A stretch of DNA of 64,000 nt, taken from contig JAPOUM010000001.1 in the NCBI GenBank assembly GCA_026708645.1, positions 52,258-116,257 of the forward strand, read 5' to 3'. This DNA is from Acidimicrobiaceae bacterium (GTDB taxonomy: Bacteria; Actinomycetota; Acidimicrobiia; Acidimicrobiales; Aldehydirespiratoraceae). Positions 7,745 through 56,563 of the stretch are shown here, one piece after another. The notes beneath the pieces were generated by a model that saw only the letters and a list, made by a program, of their open reading frames with translations, ran no database searches and had not been told where the DNA came from. Every line of letters starts with the position of its first letter. The first letter of the stretch is position 1. The position numbers and the translations under genes were made by a program.

Positions 7745-9273
<1,529 letters not shown>

Positions 9274-9349
9274 CGCACTCAACGATCAGTCTGCTGTTTG
9301 GCTGACTGAAGTTTGAGTGTCTCCCAGTTAGGGCACTCGCTGGGTTGTT

Positions 9350-9364
9350 CGTCTCTTCCGTTTT
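9350..9364 (+). other. 3' half of the 16S processing stem
   Basis: Reverse complement of 7483..7497. Confidence 0.8.
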
Positions 9365-9483
9365 GAGGGAGCAGTCAAACTGCTGCTTTCTGTGTGGTCG
9401 CGCTGGGCTTGAGCGCTGTCAGCGAATTAGCTGAATTAGCTGCCGTCAAGCTGCACCGGCCATTGATCGTTTCTTGAGAATTG

Positions 9484-9500
9484 CATAGCGAGCACGAGCA
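9484..9500 (+). other. 5' half of the 23S processing stem (pairs with 12641..12657)
   Basis: catagcgagcacgagca is the exact reverse complement of tgctcgtgctcgctatg downstream of 23S (17 bp). Confidence 0.8.
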
Positions 9501-9527
9501 TCTTTCGTAAGATGCAATGAATATGAA

Positions 9528-12618
<3,091 letters not shown>

Positions 12619-12640
12619 CATCTTCGCATCGCGCGTTCGG

Positions 12641-12657
12641 TGCTCGTGCTCGCTATG
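12641..12657 (+). other. 3' half of the 23S processing stem
   Basis: Reverse complement of 9484..9500. Confidence 0.8.
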
Positions 12658-12773
12658 GAGTTCATCAAGAGACGATCCGTCTCTGAAGTTCCTGGTTCGT
12701 CCAGGAACTCGCTTGCGTGAGCTTCGCCTCGAAGGTCCGGCCTCGGGGCGGCTCTCATGCGAGATGACAACAG

Positions 12774-12891
<118 letters not shown>

Positions 12892-12904
12892 TTTCGTTTG
12901 CTTG

Positions 12905-19054: not shown

Positions 19055-19423
19055 TCAGCGGATCTGGAGTATGCGTCCGCCCGATCCCCAGGCGGTGTCA
19101 GCCGTCAAGACTGTGGTGTCCAGGCGTTCGGCGAGAGCGAGACACAGCCGGTCGGCCAGCGAAAGGCCTTCCTGTCTCTTCCAGCGGTAGGCGGCCCACT
19201 CGGCGTCGGCTGCGGTTACCGGCTCGATCTTGAGATGATAGCTTGAAAGTAGAGATCTGGCGTAGCTCCAGTTGCCGCCAGCGGCGATCACCTTCTGAGC
19301 TGTCTCGCTCCAGTGGACGGCGCAGCACCTAGCGTCATCGAGCAGAGCCTGCTCCACCAGTTCGGCGCCGGGCTCGCTTTGCAGTCGGGCCAGCAGAGCG
19401 GACGCATCGAGCACGGTGGTCAT
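19055..19423 (-). CDS. vapC: PIN-domain toxin VapC
   Basis: N-terminal VLDASALLA and C-terminal acidic residues (LSLADRLCLALAERLDTTVLTADTAW). 4-bp overlap with the upstream antitoxin gene. Confidence 0.85.
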   Translation of the reverse strand: MTTVLDASALLARLQSEPGAELVEQALLDDARCCAVHWSETAQKVIAAGGNWSYARSLLSSYHLKIEPVTAADAEWAAYRWKRQEGLSLADRLCLALAERLDTTVLTADTAWGSGGRILQIR

Positions 19424-19668
19424 TTGGCGGATTCCTCGAGCGCTGCCGCCTTTCGGCGATCAGCACTCAGATCACCGACGAGGTCGAGCCCTTCGAGATC
19501 TTTGCGGACACGCTCGCTGAGTTGCTCGCGTGTGACTAGCAGCAGCCCTTCGGGTGCCTCGATCAGTACCAGCACCGTGCCCGGCTCAAGGTTGGAACGC
19601 GCCCGTATCTCCGCTGGGATGACCAGCCTACCACGATCTCCCATCACGACTTGATGAGTCCCATTCAC
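19420..19668 (-). CDS. vapB: AbrB/MazE/SpoVT-type antitoxin VapB
   Basis: GRLVIPAEIRARSNLEPGTVLVL is the swapped-hairpin AbrB motif. Overlaps the vapC start. Confidence 0.85.
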   Translation of the reverse strand: MNGTHQVVMGDRGRLVIPAEIRARSNLEPGTVLVLIEAPEGLLLVTREQLSERVRKDLEGLDLVGDLSADRRKAAALEESAK

Positions 19669-19753
19669 ACATCAACCATACCACATTGGTAGTCGAAATG
19701 TCGCAGCACCGTACCGTGATGCAAGCGGAGCCTCTATCTACAACGACAACAGG

Positions 19754-20305
19754 TCAATCGTCGGGTATCCAAGGCTCGAGGTCGATGCCGAGGCCGTCGG
19801 CGATGCGGTTGGCGTAGGCGTAATAGGCCGCCACTTCGACGATGTCGAGGATGTCGCGGTCGCTGAAACCAGCAGCGCGCAGCTCTTCGACGTCGCTGTC
19901 GCACATGTCGCTCGGCGTGCGGGTGAGCTTGACCGCGAAAGCCACCATGGTCCTGCGCTCGGGCGACAGAGGCGCAGTGGTCCAGTCCTGTTCGACGGCA
20001 GCGACCAATGCGTCGTCGTTGCTCAGACGGCGCAGACCGCGCCGATGATGAACGGTTCAATAATGGCAACCGTTCTCGAGGCTGACGACCAGCGCTATCA
20101 GCTCGCGTTCGACCTTGCGCAGCGTGTCTGTGCCGGCCATGGCCGACCGGTAGAGGCCCATGTGAGCCTTCATCGACGCAGGGTTCAGCGAATGAACGGC
20201 CAGCACATGGTCGACGCGTCCGTGGCGCCGATCGACGACCTGTGCATGGAGCTCGCCGAGCTCGTCGTCCCAAGACTCGTCGGGGATGACTTCGATACGC
20301 GCCAT
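19754..20305 (-). CDS. Carboxymuconolactone decarboxylase (CMD)/AhpD-like peroxidase-related protein with in-frame TGA (probable selenocysteine, C-H-Y-U motif)
   Basis: Track ORFs 20057..20305 and 19754..20008 are in the same frame and are separated only by the TGA at 20057..20059. The read-through product is ...LVVSLENGCHY-[TGA]-TVHHRRGLRRLSNDDALVAAVEQDW.... The stop therefore sits exactly where the second Cys of the family CxxC(xxxH) redox motif is expected. A hairpin follows 12 nt downstream. Confidence 0.75.
20028..20044 (-). promoter_or_regulatory. Candidate bacterial SECIS hairpin for the CMD-family gene
   Basis: mRNA sense CGGCGC-GGUCU-GCGCCG (6-bp GC stem, G/U-containing loop), starting 12 nt after the UGA. 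Confidence 0.55.
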
Positions 20306-21325: not shown

Positions 21326-24300
21326 TTGCTGGCGTCCGTGGAGGGCTTCGCCACGGCGGTGCGCGCTCGCGGGCGTGTCGGCGGATTCAACGAAGAGACG
21401 TTGACAGCCCCCGTTCGCGAATTGATCGAGGAGATCGCCGCATCCATGGGCATCAAAGGACTGCTGGTCGTCGACAAGGCGCCCGTGGTCGTCGGCGATG
21501 TCTCGCTGGGCGTCCCGGACATTTCCGCGTATCACCGTGGACTGCTACGTCTCGTGATCGAGCTGAAGTCTCCAGGCAGGGGCGCCGACCCGACGCGCTT
21601 CACGGGGCGCGAGCACAGTCAATGGCAGCGCTACAGCCAGCTGCCCAACGTCGTCTACACCGACGGCAACACGTGGACGCTTTGGAGGGCCGGCGACATC
21701 TGGGGTCCGGCACTTGAAATCTGCTCTGACCTCAACGACTTGAATGCTGCGGTGACGCCCGACCCGCAGGAGGTGCTGCGGTTCTTCGGCGACGTTCTCA
21801 GCTGGACGCCGCCGCGGGTCGTGTCCACTCATCAGCTCGCTGAACAAGTGGCCGGTCGCTGCCGCGCGCTCCGCAGCGACGTCAACGCCCTCCCCGAAGA
21901 AGTGCTGCGGGGACTGACGAGCGACTGGCGCGAGATGCTCTTCCCCGAGCTCGAGGACAAGCAGTTCGTTGACGCCTACACGCAGACGGTCGCGTTCGCA
22001 CTGCTGTCAGCCAGCGGACTCGGCATCGACTTGAGCATGAACCTCGACCCGGTGAAATATGACCGGCTCGGGCTGCTGCTGCACCATGCGGCTGAGAGCC
22101 TCGGCGCCGAGCGGGGCGTGCTCGGAAGGGCTCTGATGATGCTGACCGCTGATTCGCGGGTCCGTTCCGCCGCAGCGGCGTCGTTGGACGCGATGATCGC
22201 TCTCGCCGCGGCCGTGGACTGGGACAAAATGCGAGGCTCGGGCCACAGCGACGATTGGATGGACTTCTACGAGACGTTCCTCGACGCATACGACCCCGAG
22301 CTTCGCAAGCTCGCGGGCTCGTACTACACGCCCAAGCCAGTCGTCGAGTGGATGGCGGACTTCACCGATCGGATACTCGTGGAGCGGTTCGGCCTGGCAT
22401 CTGGCTACGGCAGCGACGACGTGACAGTCGTCGATCCGGCGCTCGGCACCGGAACGTATCTCGTCAGCATACTCGACCGGATTGCCGGCTCTGTGACCGC
22501 CAGCGTGGGCAGCGGCCATGCGGGCGCAGCGATCAACGCGGCCGTTTCTGAGCGGGTCATAGGGTTCGAGATCCAAGCCTGCCCCTACGCAGTGGCGCAG
22601 CTTCGCCTCGTGGAGACTCTCAAAGCGCGCGATCCGAAACTCCGGGTCGAGGAGCCGGCGGTCTACCTGACTGACACTCTCGCCGACCCGGATGCCAGCG
22701 CCGGGCAGCAGATGCTTTTCATGCGGGCGATCACCGAGTCACGGAAGAAGGCTGATCGGATCAAGCGGAAAACCCCCGTGACGGTCGTGATCGGCAACCC
22801 GCCGTACCTTGCCGGCGCGGGTCAGAGCAGCTGGGTGGCCAGGGAGCTCCTCGGCGACTGGCAGCCCGACACGGAGTGGGGCGTCGGCACCCATGCGAAG
22901 AACCTGTCGAACCTCTATGTGTATTTCTGGCGTTGGGCGGCATGGAAAGTGTTCGAGAACTCTCAGCAAGGCCCGCAAGACCAGGCTGGAATCGTGTCTT
23001 TCATAACTCCGACAGGCTGGCTCGACGGCGACGGCTTCCAGCAGATGAGGCGATGGCTGCGCGAATGGTCGAGTCACATATGGATACTCGATCTCTCGCC
23101 GGAGGGGCACCAAGCGCCGGCCAAGACCCAAGTGTTCAAAGCGATGCGCCAACCGGTGGCGGTCGTGACCGCCGTTCGAGCGCCCGAGCATGACGGCGCC
23201 TGCGAGGTCCGTTACCACCGGGTGCCCGCAGGCGAGCGTTCGGCGAAGTTCGCTCACATAGCGGACCTCACAGAACTGGAAGATACTCGTTGGCGGCTGC
23301 TTGCGCCGGACCCTCTCGGCGATCGCGGCTCTTTCACGCCCGCTGCCTCGTCGGCATGGCTGCAGATGCCCGCCGTCGACGATCTGCTGCCCTGGAACGC
23401 GAGCGGCATGATGGTCGGGCGCACATGGCCCGTCGCGCCGGACCGCGACACTCTTCAGGACAGGTATGCAGCCCTGCTCTCCCAGCCGAATGATTCAGAG
23501 ATGACGAGGCACCTCGACGAGCACAAGCGGGACCGCACCATCGATACCGAGCTCGTCGACAACCTCACGTCGGACTGCACGAGACCCGGCCCGCTCAGGC
23601 AGCGGCAGCCGCGCAGCGCGCCCGTCGTCGAATACGGCTATCGCAGCTTCGACCGCCACTACGTCATCCGCGACAAGCGGCTCATCAACCGGCCTAACCC
23701 GTCGCTGTGGGCCGCTCACGGCGATCAGCAGATATATCTCGCGGCGCCCGCGCTGGGCACCGCCAGCAGTCGTCCGAAGATCGCCGGATCTGGCGGCCAG
23801 ATAATCTCCTTCAGCGCACAGATCCCGGACATGCATTATCTGGCCGGTTCCAGGGCGGGGCGCATCCATCCGGTTTGGCTCGACTCGCAGTCCGCGACCC
23901 CGAACTGCGAGCCGGGTTTGTTGAGGTTGCTTTCTGAAAAGGCCGGACGCGAAGTGTCGGCGCTGGATGTGCCGGCCTACATCGCAGCCGTCGCTGCTCA
24001 CCCCGGCTTCACCGCGGTCTACCGCGACGATCTGCTCGACGCCAAGTCGATGCGGGTGCCGCTCACGGCGGACCCAGAACTTTTTGATCATGCGGCAGGC
24101 CTCGGCCGCCGGATCCTGTATCTGAGCACATTCGGGCAGCGTTGCCGGCCGCCTGAGGCGCCACCAGGCTGCCCGAGGGCGCCGGGCGGCCCGACCCTGG
24201 AAACCCCGATGCCTGCTAAGCCGGAAAGCCTCCGGCACGATCAGGCTGCACGCACCCTGACCATCGCGGGCCGCGGCATCGACGGTTCGCCGGCGAGCGG

Positions 24301-24664
24301 CATCGTGGCCAACGTAGCCGTCGAGGTTTTCGATTACAGCGTCTCCACGATGAACGTGCTGCAATCCTGGTTCGACTACCGCAAACACGAACCGTCCGGC
24401 AAGAAGGGCTCCCCGCTCGACTACATGGTCCCGGAAACCTGGCGAACCCGCTACACCGATGACCTGATCGACCTGCTGCACGTCCTGACTCTGCTAGTGG
24501 ACGCACGCCCCGAGCAGCGACGACTTCTCGACGAAATCAAGGCAGGGCCTCTCATCGGCCTAGACACCCTGAAAGCAGCCGGGGCGCTGCCGGGCGTCAA
24601 AGGAACGCGGGCCAAGCCTGCTGAGTTCGAGCCGGGCCGGCAGTCGCCGACTTTGGACGTCTGA
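21326..24664 (+). CDS. Single-polypeptide restriction-modification enzyme (Type IIG/IIL, MmeI-like; PD-ExK nuclease + gamma-class N6-adenine methyltransferase + C-terminal specificity domain)
   Basis: N-terminal PD...ExK (GVPDISAY...LRLVIELKSPG). SAM motif I VVDPALGTGTYL. Motif IV VVIGNPPYL. C-terminal region with YGYRSFDRHYVIRDKRL resembles type ISP/IIG specificity domains. No Walker A/helicase motifs seen. Confidence 0.75.
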   Translation: MLASVEGFATAVRARGRVGGFNEETLTAPVRELIEEIAASMGIKGLLVVDKAPVVVGDVSLGVPDISAYHRGLLRLVIELKSPGRGADPTRFTGREHSQWQRYSQLPNVVYTDGNTWTLWRAGDIWGPALEICSDLNDLNAAVTPDPQEVLRFFGDVLSWTPPRVVSTHQLAEQVAGRCRALRSDVNALPEEVLRGLTSDWREMLFPELEDKQFVDAYTQTVAFALLSASGLGIDLSMNLDPVKYDRLGLLLHHAAESLGAERGVLGRALMMLTADSRVRSAAAASLDAMIALAAAVDWDKMRGSGHSDDWMDFYETFLDAYDPELRKLAGSYYTPKPVVEWMADFTDRILVERFGLASGYGSDDVTVVDPALGTGTYLVSILDRIAGSVTASVGSGHAGAAINAAVSERVIGFEIQACPYAVAQLRLVETLKARDPKLRVEEPAVYLTDTLADPDASAGQQMLFMRAITESRKKADRIKRKTPVTVVIGNPPYLAGAGQSSWVARELLGDWQPDTEWGVGTHAKNLSNLYVYFWRWAAWKVFENSQQGPQDQAGIVSFITPTGWLDGDGFQQMRRWLREWSSHIWILDLSPEGHQAPAKTQVFKAMRQPVAVVTAVRAPEHDGACEVRYHRVPAGERSAKFAHIADLTELEDTRWRLLAPDPLGDRGSFTPAASSAWLQMPAVDDLLPWNASGMMVGRTWPVAPDRDTLQDRYAALLSQPNDSEMTRHLDEHKRDRTIDTELVDNLTSDCTRPGPLRQRQPRSAPVVEYGYRSFDRHYVIRDKRLINRPNPSLWAAHGDQQIYLAAPALGTASSRPKIAGSGGQIISFSAQIPDMHYLAGSRAGRIHPVWLDSQSATPNCEPGLLRLLSEKAGREVSALDVPAYIAAVAAHPGFTAVYRDDLLDAKSMRVPLTADPELFDHAAGLGRRILYLSTFGQRCRPPEAPPGCPRAPGGPTLETPMPAKPESLRHDQAARTLTIAGRGIDGSPASGIVANVAVEVFDYSVSTMNVLQSWFDYRKHEPSGKKGSPLDYMVPETWRTRYTDDLIDLLHVLTLLVDARPEQRRLLDEIKAGPLIGLDTLKAAGALPGVKGTRAKPAEFEPGRQSPTLDV

Positions 24665-29510: not shown

Positions 29511-30551
29511 TCAGTCGCTCAAGCGGATCCTGCCCGGGTCGGAGCTCTCGAAGGCTTCGCCGATCACGGCGGCCTCGTGACCGTCGAGGCGCAGTTCGGT
29601 CACCGCAGCCAGGGCCGCGTCGCGGCTGACCATGCCCAGCAGCAGACCCCCCGACGTCTGGGCGTCGGCCAGCAGCGTCACTTCGGCGTCGCTGACGCCG
29701 CCCCGGTCGAGATGCGGCGACACCCAGTCGAGATTGCGCTGAGAGCCGCCGGGGACCATCCCCGAGGCGGCTAGTTCGCGGGCGCCCGCGATGACAGGAA
29801 CCTGCCCGACCGCGATCTCCAGATCCACGCCGGATTCCTGCGCCAGGCGCCGTCCGTGGCCCAGCAGGCCGAAGCCGGTCACGTCGGTGGCGGCGGTGGC
29901 GCCGTGTCGCAGCCCCGCGGCGGCGGCTCTCTCGTTGGGTCGGATCATCTCGCGCGCGGCCAGTGCCAACACTTCATCGGGGGCCTCGCCGTGTTTGACG
30001 GCCGTCGAGATCACCCCCGAACCCAGCGGTTTCGTCAGCACCAGCGCGTTGCCGGGTCGCAGCCCGGCGTTGGTGAGCATGCGCTTGGGGTCGACCTCGC
30101 CCACGACCGCCATCCCGTACTTCGGTTCGGGGTCGTCCACGGTGTGGCCCCCGCCCACCACGAAGCCGCAGGCCCGGGCCGCGTCCTCCCCGCCGGCGAG
30201 CACTTCGCTGAGCAGGTCGCTGGACAGCTCCTGGGAGTTCCAAGCCACGAGATTCAAAGCCAGCAGCGGTTTCCCGCCCATGGCGTAGACGTCCGACACG
30301 GCGTTGGTCGCGGCTATCTGCCCCCAGAGGCGAGCGTCGTCGACCACGGGCGTGATGAAGTCGGCGGTCACCACCAGGGCGCGTCGCGGCGCGATCTGCC
30401 AGACCGCGGCGTCGTCGGAAGTGTCGAGGCCGACTAGCAGCTCCGGCGGGGGATCAGGGGTCAGGCCGCGCACGACGTGCGCGAGATCGCCCGCGGCGAT
30501 CTTGCAGCCTCAACCGGCGCCGTGGCTGAACTCGGTGAGCCTTCTGCCCAT
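29511..30551 (-). CDS. selD: Selenide, water dikinase (selenophosphate synthetase) with in-frame TGA (probable selenocysteine at the E. coli Cys17-equivalent position)
   Basis: The track ORF 29511..30473 lacks the N-terminus. Extending upstream in frame gives MGRRLTEFSHGAG-[TGA 30510..30512]-GCKIAAGDLAHVVRGLTPD.... This matches the SelD glycine-rich loop SHGAG(C/U)GCKI. The remainder is colinear with recalled E. coli SelD (DDAAV, IAATNAVSDVYAMGGKP, GGHTVDDPEPKYG, TDVTGFGLLGH, DAQTSGGLL). Confidence 0.85.
30484..30502 (-). promoter_or_regulatory. Candidate bacterial SECIS hairpin for selD
   Basis: mRNA sense AGAUCGCC-GCG-GGCGAUCU (8-bp perfect stem, or 7 bp with loop CGCGG), starting 7 nt after the UGA. 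Confidence 0.6.
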
Positions 30552-30618
30552 AGCTCTCACCCCCTCTCGACTGCTCGTGGTTGCTCGTGGTGCTTCCGGG
30601 GCCGGCGGTGCTGCGTCC

Positions 30619-31032
30619 TCACGCAGCCGGATGCGCCCCGAGCTCGGCCGACAGCAGCCCCGCGACCATGTCCAGATCGTCGGGGTCGGGGTCTGCGTCG
30701 GCGTTGTCGAAGTCGAAATGCTCCATCGTCGAGATCGGCAGAACATGCAGATGGACATGGGGCACCTCGAAACCGGCGATCATCAGACCCACCCGGTGCG
30801 GCGCCAGCCCGCAGGCTTGCAGAGCCGCCGCCACACGATGTGACACAGTCATCAGATGATTGGCGGTCTCGTTGTCGAGGTCCACCCAATGATCGACTTC
30901 CCGGCGGGGCACCACCAGCACATGGCCGCGGTTGAGTGGGCGGATGTTGACGATGACGACGCAACAGTCGTCCTGCCAGACGAAACGGCCGGGCAGCTCA
31001 CCGTCGATGATCCGAGTGAAGACTGAACTCAT
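30619..31032 (-). CDS. HIT (histidine triad) family protein
   Basis: Motifs FTRIIDGELPGRFV, NRGHVLVVP and histidine triad HVHLHVLP. Only the 3' 414 nt of track ORF 30619..31758 is credible. Confidence 0.88.
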   Translation of the reverse strand: MSSVFTRIIDGELPGRFVWQDDCCVVIVNIRPLNRGHVLVVPRREVDHWVDLDNETANHLMTVSHRVAAALQACGLAPHRVGLMIAGFEVPHVHLHVLPISTMEHFDFDNADADPDPDDLDMVAGLLSAELGAHPAA

Positions 31033-46876: not shown

Positions 46877-47257
46877 ATGAATGTTCCAGACGGATTGCGT
46901 TACTCCGAAGACCACGAGTGGGCCGCCGCCGACGGCGGCGTCGTGCGCATCGGCATCACCGACTACGCCCAGGACGCTCTGGGCGATGTGGTCTATGTGG
47001 AGCTGCCCCAGGTGGGCGACCGTGTCGAGCAGGGCGAAGCCTTCGGCGAGGTCGAGTCGACCAAGTCGGTCTCTGAGTTGTTCGCGCCTGTGGGCGGCGT
47101 CGTCACCGAAGTCAACGACGAGCTCGGCGGGTCGCCGCAGAGGTTGAACGAGGATCCCTACGGCGACGGCTGGATCTGCACGGTGGCCTTCGATGAGGCC
47201 GCCGACCTGGACCGCCTGCTCGACGCCGACGGCTACAGGGGCCTGATAGAAGGGTAG
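46877..47257 (+). CDS. gcvH: Glycine cleavage system protein H
   Basis: Motifs HEWA, GITDYAQDALGDVVYVELP and the lipoyl-lysine motif VESTKSVSEL. Confidence 0.93.
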   Translation: MNVPDGLRYSEDHEWAAADGGVVRIGITDYAQDALGDVVYVELPQVGDRVEQGEAFGEVESTKSVSELFAPVGGVVTEVNDELGGSPQRLNEDPYGDGWICTVAFDEAADLDRLLDADGYRGLIEG

Positions 47258-47270
47258 AGGGGCGCCCGCA

Positions 47271-47735
47271 ATGGCCTCCGAGCCGTCGTCTGATCCCGGC
47301 CGCGACGACCGCGCCGTCGGAGAGTCCCGCGGCGCGGCGCCGCAGCCCGTTGACGCCGCGACGAAAGCCCCTGCCGCGAACGGCGACCCCGCAGCGGGCG
47401 AAGTCCGTGTCGACCGGTCGGAGTTCAGTCCCAGGCAGGGTCTCTTCGTGGTGGAGCAGGGCGCCGAGGCCGGCGCCCGCTACCTGCTCGACTCGGATCT
47501 GGTGTCGCTCGGGCGCGACCCGCGCAGTGACATCTTCCTCGACGACATAACGGTGTCGCGCCGCCACGCTGAGGTGGCTCGAGACGGGGATCGCTACTCG
47601 ATTCGCGACGTCGGCTCACTGAACGGCACTTACATCAACCGGACCCTGGTGGATCGATGCCGGCTCAACGAGGGCGACGAGGTGCAGGTCGGCAAATTCA
47701 AGCTGGTGTTCGTGCGCGGCACTTCCGGCGGATGA
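47271..47735 (+). CDS. garA: FHA-domain regulator (GarA/OdhI homologue)
   Basis: C-terminal FHA domain (LGRDPRSDIFLDDITVSRRHAEV...SLNGTYINR...GDEVQVGKFKLVF). Position after gcvH as in mycobacteria (recalled synteny). Confidence 0.8.
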   Translation: MASEPSSDPGRDDRAVGESRGAAPQPVDAATKAPAANGDPAAGEVRVDRSEFSPRQGLFVVEQGAEAGARYLLDSDLVSLGRDPRSDIFLDDITVSRRHAEVARDGDRYSIRDVGSLNGTYINRTLVDRCRLNEGDEVQVGKFKLVFVRGTSGG

Positions 47736-47820
47736 GACGCACGGCACTCCCGCGAGACGAGTGGTCTCCGACTGTCGACGGGCGCTCGGCGGGGCGCTCG
47801 GCTGGGCGCGGGGTGACGCC

Positions 47821-48720
47821 ATGAGCCGCGACCACATGTCCATCGGCGATGTGCTCTCGCTGCTCGCCGAGGAGCATCCCGATCTGACCGTCTCGAAGAT
47901 CCGCTTCCTGGAGGCTCAGGGTTTGATCTCGCCGCAGCGGACGCCGTCGGGCTATCGCAAGTTCTACGACAGCGACGTCAAGCGGCTCAATTGGGTGCTG
48001 ATCCAACAGCGCGACAACTTCCTGCCCTTGAAGGAGATCAAGCGCCGCCTGACCTCGGGCGCCGTGGCCAAGACGTCCCCGCGGCGCCTGGCAGGCGAGC
48101 CCGCGTCCGAGCTCGCCGCTTTGTCGCTGTTCGAACCCCTCGCCGGCAGCGAGTCGAGCCGGGCCGACCTTGCCGCATCCAGCTCAGCATCCGCTGCATC
48201 CGCTGCATCCGCTGCATCCGCTGAATCCGCTGCATCCGGTGAAGAGAACGCAGAGGCTGCATCCGACTCATCGGACGCAGCCGTCGCCGCGTCGGGTCGA
48301 GACGTCCCCCCGACGCCCGCGCCGGACCGCCCGCGAGCTCCGGGACGGCTCACCGTCGAGCAGTTGGCGCAGCAGCTGGATGCGGACCTCGACTACGTCG
48401 TCGAGCTGAAGCGTCACGGCATCATCGCAGCGGTCGGCGAGTCTCGCGACACCGGCAGCGAGACTGTCCTGCAGCCCGAGGCGCTGGCGCTGGCGGAGAC
48501 GGCCGCCGCTTTGGCCGAGCACGGCATCCCGGCACGCAACCTGCGGATGTTCAAAGTCGCCGCCGACCGTGAAGCAGGCGTCTACGAGCAGCTGCTGGCC
48601 CCGCTGATCGCACGAGGCGACAGGGATCTCTTCCTCGCCGAGCTCACCGAGATCATCGACCTGGCCGAGAGGCTGCGACGTTTGCTGCTGCTGCAAGCGA
48701 TACGCAGCTACCTGAGCTGA
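47821..48720 (+). CDS. MerR-family transcriptional regulator (FtsR/Rv1828-like) with Ser/Ala repeat linker
   Basis: HTH MSIGDVLSLLAEEHPDLTVSKIRFLEAQGLISPQRTPSGYRKFY. A second MerR-like C-terminal domain is present. Confidence 0.8.
   Translation: MSRDHMSIGDVLSLLAEEHPDLTVSKIRFLEAQGLISPQRTPSGYRKFYDSDVKRLNWVLIQQRDNFLPLKEIKRRLTSGAVAKTSPRRLAGEPASELAALSLFEPLAGSESSRADLAASSSASAASAASAASAESAASGEENAEAASDSSDAAVAASGRDVPPTPAPDRPRAPGRLTVEQLAQQLDADLDYVVELKRHGIIAAVGESRDTGSETVLQPEALALAETAAALAEHGIPARNLRMFKVAADREAGVYEQLLAPLIARGDRDLFLAELTEIIDLAERLRRLLLLQAIRSYLS
48187..48240 (+). repeat. 9-bp tandem repeat (GCATCCGCT) x6 inside the MerR gene, encoding (ASA)n
   Basis: Four perfect units followed by two units each with one substitution, read directly. 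Confidence 0.9.
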
Positions 48721-48803
48721 CCTTCTGCGGGCCTCGCACTGGCGCCCACATGGGCGACGGCGGCGACTGGGTCCAGCACAGCACGCACGGCTAGGCTTTC
48801 AGC

Positions 48804-49304
48804 GTGCAGGAGATGGAACTGATAGGCGTGCGGGTGGAGTTGCCCTCCAACACGCCGATAGTGCTGCTTCGCGAGATGTCGGAGCAGTCGCGGCTGCTGC
48901 CGATCTTCATCGGCGCCCCCGAAGCGACAGCGATAGCGATAGCGCTGGACGGGGTCGACACCCCGCGGCCCATGACCCACGACCTGCTGCGCGACCTTCT
49001 CGAAGAGCTGTCAGTCGACGTCGAACGGGTGGTGGTGACCGAACTGCGGGACAAGACCTTCTTCGCGGAATTGCACATCATGCGCGACGGCGGCCGGGTG
49101 GTTCTGTCGAGCCGCCCTTCGGACGCCATCGCCTTGGCCGCCCGCACAGGCACGCCGATCTTCGCGGAGGAGTCGGTGATCCAAGAGGCGGGCTACACCA
49201 CCGAGAGCGTCGCAGAGGCGGGGGAGCAGCAGGCCGAAGAAGTGGTCGAGCAGTTCAAAGAGTTCATCGACTCGGTGTCGCCGGAGGACTTCGGCGCCCA
49301 GTGA
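48804..49304 (+). CDS. Bifunctional nuclease family protein (DUF151, Rv1829-like)
   Basis: Motifs VLLRE...RLLPIFIGAPEATAIAIAL, RPMTHDLL, FFAEL. Confidence 0.8.
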   Translation: MQEMELIGVRVELPSNTPIVLLREMSEQSRLLPIFIGAPEATAIAIALDGVDTPRPMTHDLLRDLLEELSVDVERVVVTELRDKTFFAELHIMRDGGRVVLSSRPSDAIALAARTGTPIFAEESVIQEAGYTTESVAEAGEQQAEEVVEQFKEFIDSVSPEDFGAQ

Positions 49305-49519
49305 CGCCGGCGCCGGTGCTTGACTCGCGGGTCTCGCCGACGTAGGATTTCCCACAGATGGCAGCGGCGTAATTCCCTCACTGTCATTGTGCAGGTGCTG
49401 CGTGTGCAGGCGTTGAGCTTGCGAGTGCTGAGTGCCTGCCCTGCGAGCCGAAGCGCGAGCAAGACGAGCTGAAGCGCAAGCAAGACGAACAAGGAAGCAA
49501 GACGAGCAAGGAGCGGATC

Positions 49520-50050
49520 ATGAGCCGAGACCAGCAGAAAGCCCCTCTGGGCTACAGCGCCACGCTCACAGCCGAAGTCGTGGGCATCACCTACCGCCAA
49601 CTCGATCACTGGGCTCGCACGGGCCTGATAGCGCCGTCGCTGGCCGACGCTGCGGGAAGCGGCAGCCGGCGCGTCTACAGCTACACCAACCTGCTCGAAC
49701 TCAAAGTGATCAAGCGCCTGCTCGACGCGGGCATCAAGCTCAACAAGATCCGCACGATCTTCGACTACATGCGCCAAGAGCTGCAAGAAGACATCTCGCG
49801 AGCCAATCTCGTGATCGACGGCGACAGGGTGCTATGCCCGCGCGGCGACACCGAGCTGATCGACGTGCTGGTGCGAGGCAGGGGCGTGCGAGGCCAGCGC
49901 GTGCTGAACGTGCTGCCGCTGTCGACGTTGGAGCAGGAAGTGGACGCGGCGATCGTCGAGCTGAGGCCAGCGGACGACGCCGTTGAATCGGTCGATGACG
50001 GCGACGAATTCCACGAAGCAGATCTCTGGACCGCGAGCGGACTCCGCTGA
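49520..50050 (+). CDS. MerR-family transcriptional regulator (Rv1830-like)
   Basis: HTH TAEVVGITYRQLDHWARTGLIAPS...GSGSRRVYSYTNLLELKVIKRLLDAGI. Confidence 0.82.
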   Translation: MSRDQQKAPLGYSATLTAEVVGITYRQLDHWARTGLIAPSLADAAGSGSRRVYSYTNLLELKVIKRLLDAGIKLNKIRTIFDYMRQELQEDISRANLVIDGDRVLCPRGDTELIDVLVRGRGVRGQRVLNVLPLSTLEQEVDAAIVELRPADDAVESVDDGDEFHEADLWTASGLR

Positions 50051-50265
50051 AGTCTCACGAGTCCGTGCCGCGCCTCGATTCAGTGGCGCTGTTCGCTCAT
50101 CGCTGCTGAGCGGGCTTTCGCGGACCTGCGCGACACGCCGGTGAAGCCGTGGCTCGAGCGGCTCTCGACTTGGCAGCGAAATCCAGTGGGAATGCGAACG
50201 TCGCGGCGCGCGGATCCTCACTTGCCGCCGCTCGCTGTCAGAGCTGAGCGGTAGCTTTGCGCATT

Positions 50266-51393
50266 ATGAGCGATGATCTGAGGCAGTCTCCGCTGCGTCG
50301 AGCCCACGAGCAGGCCGGGGCCAGGCTGGTGCCATTCGGCGGCTGGGAAATGCCGCTGCAGTACCCGGGCGGCACCGTCGCCGAGCACATGGCCTGCCGC
50401 ACAGGCGCCGCCGTCTTCGACGTGTCGCATCTGGGGACGGTGCGGGTGCGAGGCGCCGGCGCGCACCGCGCCCTGCAGCGGGCGTTCACCAACGACCTGG
50501 ACCGTGTCGGGGTCGGATCGGCCCAGTACACGCATCTGCTGGATCCCGTCGACGCCTCCGTTCTCGACGACATCATCGTGTGGTGGCTCGGCGCAGACGT
50601 TTTCGAGGTGATGCCCAACGCGTCCAACACCGACCGGGTGGTCGCCGCGCTGCGCGACGGTGCTGACGAGCCCGACGCCGTGCCTGCACCGCCTGCGGGC
50701 GGTGGCGGCGCAGGCGGCGGTTTGGAGATCGCCGATGTGACAGCTGATCGGGCGGTGATCGCCGTTCAGGGCCCCGAAGCCAGGGATCGGGTGGCGGCCG
50801 CCGGCGGCGAGTCTGCGGCCTCGGTTGGGCGCTTCAAGGTGGCTGAGGCACGTTTCGGCGAGATCCCGGTCACGGTGGCGGGAACCGGCTACACCGGCGA
50901 GGACGGTGTCGAGATGTCGGTCGGCGTCGAGGACGCTGAGACGGTCTGGCGGCGGCTGCTCGAAGCCGAGGTCGTGCCGGCTGGGCTGGGAGCGCGCGAC
51001 ACGCTGCGTCTGGAGGCCGGACTGCCGCTGCACGGCCACGAACTCGGCGCCGGCATAACTCCGCTGCAAGCCGGCTTGGGCTGGGTGGTGCGCTGGGACA
51101 AAGGCGACTTCCGGGGCCGTGCCGCGCTCGCCGCCGAACGCGAGGCAGGCCCGCACCGGCGCCTGCGGGGTCTGCTGGCCGCCAAGGGCCGGCCGCCCCG
51201 CGACGGCTGCACGGTCCGGCGCGGCGGCGAGCCGGTCGGCGTCGTCACCAGCGGCAACTTCTCGCCGGTGCTGGGCCAGGGTATAGCGCTGGCGTTGCTG
51301 TCACCGGAGGTAGCTGTCGGCGACGAAGCAGTGATAGACGTGCGCGGACGCGACCTGCCCGCGAAGGTGGTCAAAACCCCCTTCCACCGCTGA
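50266..51393 (+). CDS. gcvT: Glycine cleavage system aminomethyltransferase T
   Basis: Motifs PLRRAHEQAGARLVPFGGWEMPLQY, AVFDVSHLG, TGYTGEDG, ARDTLRLEAGLPLHGHEL. Confidence 0.93.
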   Translation: MSDDLRQSPLRRAHEQAGARLVPFGGWEMPLQYPGGTVAEHMACRTGAAVFDVSHLGTVRVRGAGAHRALQRAFTNDLDRVGVGSAQYTHLLDPVDASVLDDIIVWWLGADVFEVMPNASNTDRVVAALRDGADEPDAVPAPPAGGGGAGGGLEIADVTADRAVIAVQGPEARDRVAAAGGESAASVGRFKVAEARFGEIPVTVAGTGYTGEDGVEMSVGVEDAETVWRRLLEAEVVPAGLGARDTLRLEAGLPLHGHELGAGITPLQAGLGWVVRWDKGDFRGRAALAAEREAGPHRRLRGLLAAKGRPPRDGCTVRRGGEPVGVVTSGNFSPVLGQGIALALLSPEVAVGDEAVIDVRGRDLPAKVVKTPFHR

Positions 51394-56071: not shown

Positions 56072-56172
56072 CAGGCAGGTCACAATAGCTGTCGATAGCC
56101 GCCGGAGGCGCGGCTCTGCGCGCCTGTCGCTGATCGGCGGCAATGTTCTTGGCGATGATCTTGTCTCGGTTG

Positions 56173-56563
56173 TGGAGCTGGGGAGAATCGAACTCCCGTC
56201 CGTCAGGCGGACACCGGGATCGCTACGACCATTCCCGAGAGTCGCAGCTTGCGGCTGCCGCCACGCCGGGTCGTGTGGATCCCAGGGGATCCCGCCGCCG
56301 GATCTTTCTCCGATGTCAGCGGTCTTTGCCTGCCGTCAGCGGGTCTCTCCCCGCCGTCCACCGCTGCTTCTGGTGCCAGGCTGCAGCGGTCAGGCCCCGC
56401 GTGCCATTGCTGGTCGCGATGATTCTTGCAGCTAGATCAGATCAGGCTGCGAGAACGAGATCGTCGTTTTCGGCGTCTCTGGGGGTGCCCTGTTTAAGGA
56501 GTCTGAGCAACTCCGGTCGCACTCCGCGGCTTCCTAGTCCCGACGTCGAAACCGGTCAGCCCC
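56173..56563 (-). ncRNA. ssrA: tmRNA (SsrA); tag reading frame encodes AENDDLVLAA
   Basis: Minus-strand 5' end is GGGGCTGACCGGTTTCGACG. The 3' tRNA-like end is GGACGGGAGTTCGATTCTCCCCAGCTCCA, with a G3:U pair in the acceptor stem. Resume codon GCC at 56472-74 and stop at 56442-44. CCA is not encoded (the next bases are CAA). Confidence 0.93.

Follow-up and report, generated by a model that had tools for sequence, protein, structure and literature searches.

We analyzed a 64,000-nucleotide stretch of contig JAPOUM010000001.1 (hereafter the window) from the Acidimicrobiaceae bacterium assembly GCA_026708645.1. On its minus strand the window carries a gene for selenide, water dikinase (selD) whose reading frame is interrupted by an in-frame TGA, followed in the mRNA by two abutting hairpins (Table 1). 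An earlier reading of this DNA, made without database searches (the sequence-only reading), had placed the TGA at the equivalent of the catalytic Cys17 of Escherichia coli SelD, and the alignments below bear this out. The minus-strand translation reads MGRRLTEFSHGAG, then the stop and GCKIAAGDL..., with 332 further stop-free codons, and TGA is the single internal stop in the 346-codon frame (MGRRLTEFSHGAG-TGA-GCKIAAGDLAHVVRGL...). With Cys put in place of this stop, the product scores 364.5 bits against NCBIfam TIGR00476 (selD; cutoff 125, residues 4-309) and 335.4 bits against NF002098 (cutoff 299, residues 4-337), exceeding both curated SelD equivalog models in a match that includes the N-terminal extension upstream of an internal GTG at 30473. 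The structures of E. coli SelD (3u0o; E = 1.9e-70, residues 4-332) and Aquifex SelD (2yye; E = 1.5e-57) are matched as well, and the Pfam domains AIRS (PF00586) and AIRS_C (PF02769) are recorded on the called product. Judged by these profiles, 29511..30551 is a genuine selD gene. In the alignment to 3u0o, residue 14, encoded by the TGA at 30512..30510, corresponds to Cys17 and residue 17 to Lys20. The loop SHGAG-U-GCK, where U denotes selenocysteine (Sec), thereby aligns with SHGAG-C17-GC-K20 of E. coli SelD, in which the Cys17-Lys20 loop is essential.

The start of the gene is well marked. A Shine-Dalgarno sequence, GGGGGUGA, lies ahead of the ATG at 30551..30549 and is complementary to the 3' tail (...GGAUCACCUCCUUU) of the 16S rRNA encoded in the same window. 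The nearest relative in our comparison (locus L001) has a start at equal distance, 13 codons ahead of its TGA. A mechanical list of open reading frames (ORFs) begins selD at GTG 30473, as the sequence-only reading had pointed out, and yields 320 aa. The expectation of that reading that automated annotation would truncate the gene proved correct, since the identical 320-aa product is found in public gene calls on at least 17 contigs. This GTG is the first codon of the 3' arm of the second hairpin and is buried in a stable helix; no purine-rich, Shine-Dalgarno-like stretch was seen ahead of it on reading the sequence. Since the Sec residue in the SHGAG-U-GCK loop would occupy the site of E. coli Cys17/Lys20, we predict that the active enzyme is the full-length product. 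The form of 320 aa, which is without the catalytic loop, appears to be an ORF-finder artefact.

To follow the TGA across related genomes, we aligned selD from 80 related loci in one-genome-per-species references, including Sec- and Cys-type genes. The Cys17 column is TGA in 31 of them (29 loci identified by a first motif and two Bacillota loci, L048 and L073, which that motif had missed) and TGC or TGT in the remainder. The TGA-type loci span several phyla and include all of the 21 closest relatives (56-80% identity), which are annotated as Acidimicrobiia, Acidimicrobiales or Actinomycetota metagenome-assembled genomes. At the locus itself, the 81 bases around the TGA are identical in six independent metagenome assemblies. 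The 10 codons preceding the TGA encode RLTxFSHGAG in 30 of 30 sequences; they show 31 extra synonymous codon types versus 8 extra amino-acid types, and the invariant Ser is written with AGY codons in some sequences and with TCN codons in others. This codon usage indicates that the peptide before the TGA is under strong purifying selection. Such a pattern arises only if the stretch is translated in frame with the gene body, so the UGA must be decoded. The gene has two of the properties expected of a bacterial selenoprotein gene, namely a UGA that stands at a Cys column and is kept as UGA in relatives, and a single reading frame that is under coding constraint before as well as after the UGA. 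In two scans of the window and its flanks for other UGA-interrupted genes, selD was the only credible one; the remaining matches were same-frame boundaries between neighbouring genes or antisense ORFs.

Table 1 Features of the selD locus, in window coordinates
Feature	Coordinates	Strand	Description	Basis
Full-length selD coding sequence	29511..30551	minus	346 codons + stop, predicted Sec at codon 14	translation, profile matches
In-frame UGA, putative Sec codon	30510..30512	minus	equivalent of E. coli SelD Cys17	translation, alignment, relatives
Hairpin 1 (that of the sequence-only reading)	30484..30502	minus	nt 11-29, 8 bp, loop GCG	folding, covariation
Hairpin 2	30467..30483	minus	nt 30-46, 7 bp, loop GUC; CGCGCAC-GUC-GUGCGCG	folding, covariation, RNAalifold
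Shine-Dalgarno sequence GGGGGUGA	30557..30564	minus	5 nt upstream of ATG 30551..30549	read from sequence
HIT-family gene	30619..31032	minus	67 nt before selD, context only	Pfam HIT on 137-aa product

Tandem hairpins downstream of the UGA

The 60 nt after each UGA were folded, and an ungapped alignment of 30 Sec-type sequences was used for covariation; positions in the hairpins are counted in nucleotides from the U of the UGA. Hairpin 1, AGAUCGCC-GCG-GGCGAUCU, forms 8 perfect pairs at 30502..30484 and begins 7 nt past the UGA, as the sequence-only reading had described, and zero nucleotides separate it from hairpin 2. The fold is beyond chance: nt 10-48 of the window reach -23.9 kcal/mol versus -14.2 +/- 3.0 for 2000 synonymous recodings (same peptide, this genome's codon usage), only 7 of which fold as well. 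The plain dinucleotide-shuffle z-score of a 56-nt stretch is only -1.6, because the sequence is very G+C-rich.

Both hairpins covary across the Sec-type sequences. Taken together, 92% of their cells are standard-paired versus 30-41% in controls whose pairing partners were slid along by 1-3 columns, and double-sided changes occur at 10 of the 15 pairs; none of 500 shuffles matches the observed values. Taken separately, hairpin 1 has 89% of cells paired and double-sided changes at 5 of 8 pairs, and hairpin 2 has 96% and 5 of 7. RNAalifold, unaided, returns the same two helices. Some of the compensations alter the protein, as in hairpin 1, where Ile-AUC/Asp-GAU becomes Leu-CUC/Glu-GAG, and at pair 36-40 of hairpin 2, where His-CAC/Val-GUG becomes Gln-CAG/Leu-CUG. 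The tandem hairpins thus constrain the SelD peptide (I/L with D/E; H/Q with V/L). The arrangement is kept from Acidimicrobiia to Chloroflexota, Gemmatimonadota and 'delta proteobacteria', with a reduced form in Bacillota; one locus, L034, has a single hairpin, placed differently.

The consensus for bacterial selenocysteine insertion sequence (SECIS) elements, in the model of Zhang and Gladyshev, comprises a loop of 3-9 nt on a stem of 4-16 bp, a minimum free energy of -7.5 kcal/mol or below, a G at loop position 1 or 2 (in most cases as N1-G-[G/U]-N-N2) and an apical loop 16-37 nt from the UGA (PMC13188914). All four criteria hold for hairpin 2 in 27 of 32 Sec-type genes and for hairpin 1 in 0 of 32. 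Loop size, stem length and energy are within the limits in both hairpins of the window (hairpin 1: 8 bp, 3-nt loop, -11.2 kcal/mol; hairpin 2: 7 bp, 3-nt loop, -10.5 kcal/mol). The loop G is present in hairpin 2 of all 32 genes (the window has C-GUC-G, and neither G37 nor U38 varies) and in hairpin 1 of four, the GCG of the window qualifying and the CCN loops of relatives failing. The loop of hairpin 2 lies 33 nt from the UGA, inside the range, and that of hairpin 1 lies 15 nt away, just outside it.

Comparison with Cys-type genes separates the two hairpins further. Hairpin 2 forms 3.0 of its 7 pairs in Cys-type genes versus 6.7 in Sec-type genes, and hairpin 1 forms 5.2 of 8 versus 7.1; the Cys-type genes, which have no need of a SECIS, partly form hairpin 1 because the codons for the peptide K-I/L-x-P-G-E/D-L are themselves palindromic. 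The two Bacillota loci, L048 and L073, keep hairpin 2 almost base for base as GCGCAGGUUCUGCG(C/U), and in both of them hairpin 1 is cut to 4-5 bp and shifted. In L019 hairpin 1 is shifted and hairpin 2 stays. These patterns suggest that hairpin 2 is the likelier SelB-binding SECIS element and that hairpin 1 is probably an accessory or spacer helix. The sequence-only reading had named hairpin 1 as the SECIS; the hairpin itself is real and covaries, but its consensus fit and its 15-nt spacing speak against that role, for which the adjacent hairpin 2 is the better fit. Tools of the bSECISearch type would detect the selD SECIS through hairpin 2.

Several observations weigh against placing the SelB site in hairpin 2. 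That G37 and U38 never vary is confounded by their place in the gene, where they form positions 1 and 2 of a conserved Val codon, and a loop 33 nt from the UGA is near the far end of the accepted 16-37 nt range and 14 nt further out than in E. coli fdhF. Hairpin 1, in turn, lies at the classical distance and also shows covariation, which leaves hairpin 2 as no more than the probable SelB site. The alternative would be that hairpin 1 (nt 11-29) is the functional SelB-binding SECIS and that hairpin 2 does something else, for instance in pausing the ribosome or in stabilizing the mRNA. In favour of this alternative, the 8-bp helix of hairpin 1 is perfect in the window, its loop begins with G and lies 15 nt from the UGA, close to the fdhF geometry, and 89% of its cells are paired, with double-sided changes at five pairs. 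We nevertheless regard this alternative as unlikely, given that hairpin 1 matches the consensus in none of the Sec-type genes, that its peptide already produces much of the helix in Cys-type genes, and that it is shrunken or shifted in L019, L048 and L073 while hairpin 2 persists. If the 11-nt rule for the spacing of the minimal SECIS in E. coli applies, moreover, its 5' arm (nt 11-14) would sit inside the mRNA channel with the UGA in the A site.

The two hairpins could also act as one element. It is conceivable, though we hold this only tentatively, that they represent a distinct and conserved bipartite class of SECIS, in which a far SelB hairpin (33 nt) depends on an abutting upstream hairpin that would shorten the effective distance or time the arrival of the ribosome. 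Such a tandem of hairpins may already be known from earlier work.

Selenocysteine machinery and decoding of the UGA

The sequence-only reading had noted that genes for Sec machinery are not visible in the window, and directed searches agree. ARAGORN found no tRNA-Sec in the 64 kb, only a transfer-messenger RNA (tmRNA), and neither a motif search nor a subsequent tblastn search (E up to 1e-3) gave a match to selA or selB in the window. The tblastn queries were SelA and SelB from L023 and L048, and the targets, none of which gave a hit, were the window, all Sec-type loci and L081/L082. A walk from the outermost window genes met no Sec machinery within 10 kb past either window end, and no selA, selB or tRNA-Sec was found within +/-10 kb of selD in the Sec-type Acidimicrobiia loci. 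Nor did ARAGORN report a tRNA-Sec in 29 Sec-type loci. Rfam, run on the whole window at gathering thresholds, returned only rRNAs and the tmRNA and no SECIS, and on 30380-30600 with E up to 10 it gave no SECIS family nor any other credible match. These results count against Sec insertion at the UGA. The Rfam miss carries little weight, because Rfam, according to a preprint on Actinomarina, covers the SECIS elements of bacteria poorly (bioRxiv 10.64898/2026.04.03.716425). The negative for the machinery is meaningful, because the same searches find selB, selA and tRNA-SeC beside selD in other loci: of nine tested loci with selA or selB next to selD, ARAGORN called tRNA-SeC in eight, and across the Cys-type actinomycete loci and the two Sec-type Bacillota loci selB is mostly beside selD, with selA there too in nine. 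So selD is unlinked from selA, selB and selC in this lineage, and from the conservation of the UGA we infer that the three genes are present elsewhere in this genome. The genome has 66% G+C. A protein of the window is also found on a 2.48-Mb contig (ena:ERZ25067984:ctg17499_32x_l), and the chromosome is probably 2.5 Mb in size. The sample names (ROBB21) suggest sponge metagenomes as the source. In these Acidimicrobiia, SelD may be the selenoprotein that maintains the Sec trait.

The position of selD relative to the machinery differs between the two enzyme forms. In the Cys-type actinomycete loci (L022-L079), in the region about 1.5-2 kb upstream of selD, the gene is mostly clustered with selB, selA was also detected in seven, and a tRNA-Sec was found in 7 of the 8 tested. 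The Sec-type Acidimicrobiia selD is never clustered with these genes over the +/-10 kb, and the two forms of the enzyme thus go with two gene organizations. One locus in Geodermatophilus telluris (L040:9858-9953, minus strand) has an ARAGORN 'tRNA-Pyl' with anticodon cta beside selD, at the site where eight other actinomycete loci have a tRNA-SeC (anticodon tca); it may be a mis-called divergent tRNA-Sec or a real anticodon change.

Readings of the TGA other than Sec have to be weighed against this background. If it were a true stop, the locus would be a pseudogene or would encode an N-terminally truncated SelD-like protein from GTG 30473; this agrees with the output of ORF finders and with public gene calls, and would fit the lack of visible Sec machinery in the 84 kb examined. 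However, the TGA is held at the exact codon in 31 genomes from several phyla, the peptide upstream of it is in frame and under purifying selection, and the gene body is intact, with a G+C content at third codon positions (GC3) of 0.88. The strong Shine-Dalgarno sequence stands at ATG 30551, whereas GTG 30473 is in a stable helix, and the protein begun there would be without the Sec/Cys17-Lys20 loop. We consider a true stop very improbable. Still less probable, and with nothing specific in its favour, is a read-through of the UGA without Sec, in which the code is reassigned or a near-cognate or suppressor tRNA inserts Trp, Cys or Gly. TGA is the stop of 29 of the 37 predicted genes of the window, so the genetic code is standard; the recoded site is exactly the catalytic Cys/Sec position; and the structure with the SECIS consensus that lies downstream is specific to Sec-type genes. 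As far as the sequences can tell, a pseudogene, a sequencing error, internal initiation and code reassignment for TGA are all very unlikely. The profile matches, the TGA in 31 of the 80 loci, the purifying selection upstream and the Sec-specific covarying RNA together leave little doubt that the product is a Sec-containing SelD, as the sequence-only reading had proposed.

Taken as a whole, the observations are, with high likelihood, best explained by a Sec-containing SelD whose UGA is decoded via SelB recruited by the tandem downstream hairpins. Translation of selD would start from ATG 30551 behind the strong Shine-Dalgarno sequence, and the UGA at codon 14 would be decoded as Sec by Sec-tRNA(Sec) brought by SelB. 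SelB would be recruited by the intragenic RNA structure just 3' of the UGA, formed by the two abutting hairpins. Hairpin 2, whose apical G-U-C loop lies 33 nt past the UGA, would most likely be the SelB-binding element, and hairpin 1 would serve as an accessory or spacer helix that is partly melted by the ribosome once the UGA reaches the A site. The distance might be bridged by a linker that tolerates 33 nt, because this is within the known range, or by hairpin 1 re-forming or stacking on hairpin 2.

Gene neighbourhood and other features of the window

The neighbourhood of selD, with genes for a HIT-family protein, an MFS protein and a CDP-alcohol phosphatidyltransferase, is common only to the nearest relative, L001, and is therefore uninformative. 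A selenoneine (senABC) or selenouridine context was considered and rejected, as the Pfam lists of the flanks contain no EgtB-like, glycosyltransferase or YbbB-like neighbour.

One-carbon and glycine-cleavage genes are concentrated at 46877-51393 (+), apparently including gcvH and gcvT, which were recognized by N-terminal sequences only. Past the right end of the window (L087:14374-21293) are genes for FolD, an MTHFR-like protein, formate-tetrahydrofolate ligase and a DAO/GCV_T fusion. Among the one-carbon genes of the window and L087, no gene was seen for formate dehydrogenase, the selenoprotein that usually accompanies SelD.

The window contains a complete 16S-23S-5S rRNA operon at 7745-12892 (+), with spacers without a tRNA gene. 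By coordinate arithmetic, the 92.5-kb contig behind L081 and L087 ends inside the 23S gene, and the gene g00, which lies on the far side of the operon, is on different contigs. The tmRNA gene at 56170-56563 (-) has the ARAGORN tag AENDDLVLAA and an Rfam RF00023 match of 78 bits, and occurs with smpB. Immediately beside tmRNA and smpB is a gene for a ParE-family toxin, with a Phd/YefM antitoxin gene called in addition in the related assembly L088; these neighbours reach to about 58233. A further cluster of toxin-antitoxin type at 19055-20305 (-), comprising a PIN gene with a MazE-like partner and Phd/YefM, sits between genes for a 2-oxoacid:ferredoxin oxidoreductase and a restriction-modification gene. 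The latter, of type ISP / type IIG (N6_Mtase + Type_ISP_C; 21326-24664, +), is a single ORF of 1112 aa. It has 1108 aa in L082 and is split into ORFs of 466 aa and 277 aa in L081 and L084, which are from the same organism; this defence gene is thus disrupted or variable at the level of strains.

Comparison with known systems

The selD gene described here has a known arrangement, and what is specific to this case is its lineage and its unlinked gene order; the current understanding of selenium biology is unchanged by it. Its main value is in correct annotation, since a 346-residue selenoprotein is predicted in place of a stored 320-aa product without the catalytic loop. It also marks this lineage of Acidimicrobiia as a likely user of selenocysteine, and so too all of the 21 nearest relatives sampled. 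This affects metabolic reconstructions from metagenome-assembled genomes, in which other UGA-interrupted genes would be miscalled likewise. The tandem hairpins offer a clean case of RNA structure dictating amino-acid choice in the encoded protein, and a simple system for the permissible distance between SECIS and UGA in bacteria.

Further bearers of Sec-type SelD include Haemophilus influenzae and Aquifex aeolicus. In 2006, Zhang et al. catalogued 38 Sec-type SelD sequences, with Rubrobacter xylanophilus and Symbiobacterium thermophilum among them and tabled under Actinobacteria, and placed SelD among the two most widespread bacterial selenoprotein families, in second position (PMC1794560). 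A 2026 review ranks it as the second largest prokaryotic selenoprotein family (PMC13188914). The gene in the window shares with known bacterial Sec-type SelD the enzyme family, the Sec position in the SHGAG-U-GCK loop, the UGA with an intragenic downstream hairpin and the truncation by gene callers. It differs from them only in belonging to a high-G+C Acidimicrobiia lineage in which selD is not clustered with selA, selB and selC.

Within the same class, a Sec-type selD is reported from complete genomes of Actinomarina (Actinomarinales, Acidimicrobiia), in which selA, selB and selC occupy other, separate sites of the chromosome (bioRxiv 10.64898/2026.04.03.716425). The resemblance extends to the failure of the Rfam SECIS models there (bioRxiv 10.64898/2026.04.03.716425). 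Compared by description, the two differ in that Actinomarina has streamlined genomes of about 1.1 Mb, unlike the G+C-rich and probably larger genome considered here. The Sec-type selD genes of Bacillota (L048, L073) have the same hairpin 2, but are located beside selA, selB and tRNA-Sec. The Cys-type SelD of Actinomycetes (AHGGG-C-ACKIPPGELE) is a 53-57% identical enzyme with the same catalytic loop. In contrast to the Sec-type gene, it has TGC or TGT at the catalytic codon, no hairpin 2 (its 3.0 of 7 pairs being about the level of the slid control) and an adjacent selC-selA-selB.

A reference for the RNA structure is the SECIS of E. coli fdhF, whose apical hairpin GGUUGCAGGUCUGCACC we confirmed in 5420 E. 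coli genomes. Like hairpin 2, the fdhF element (GGUUGCA-GGUC-UGCACC, with loop bases G23/U24) is 17 nt long and has a G-U opening its apical loop, and its GCAGGUC core also occurs in hairpin 2 of many relatives. The two differ in the distance between UGA and loop, which is 33 nt for hairpin 2 versus about 18 nt in fdhF, and in that hairpin 2 is without the bulged U. In fdhF the space between the UGA and the apical hairpin is occupied by a continuous lower stem, whereas in selD the corresponding space is filled by a separate 19-nt hairpin.

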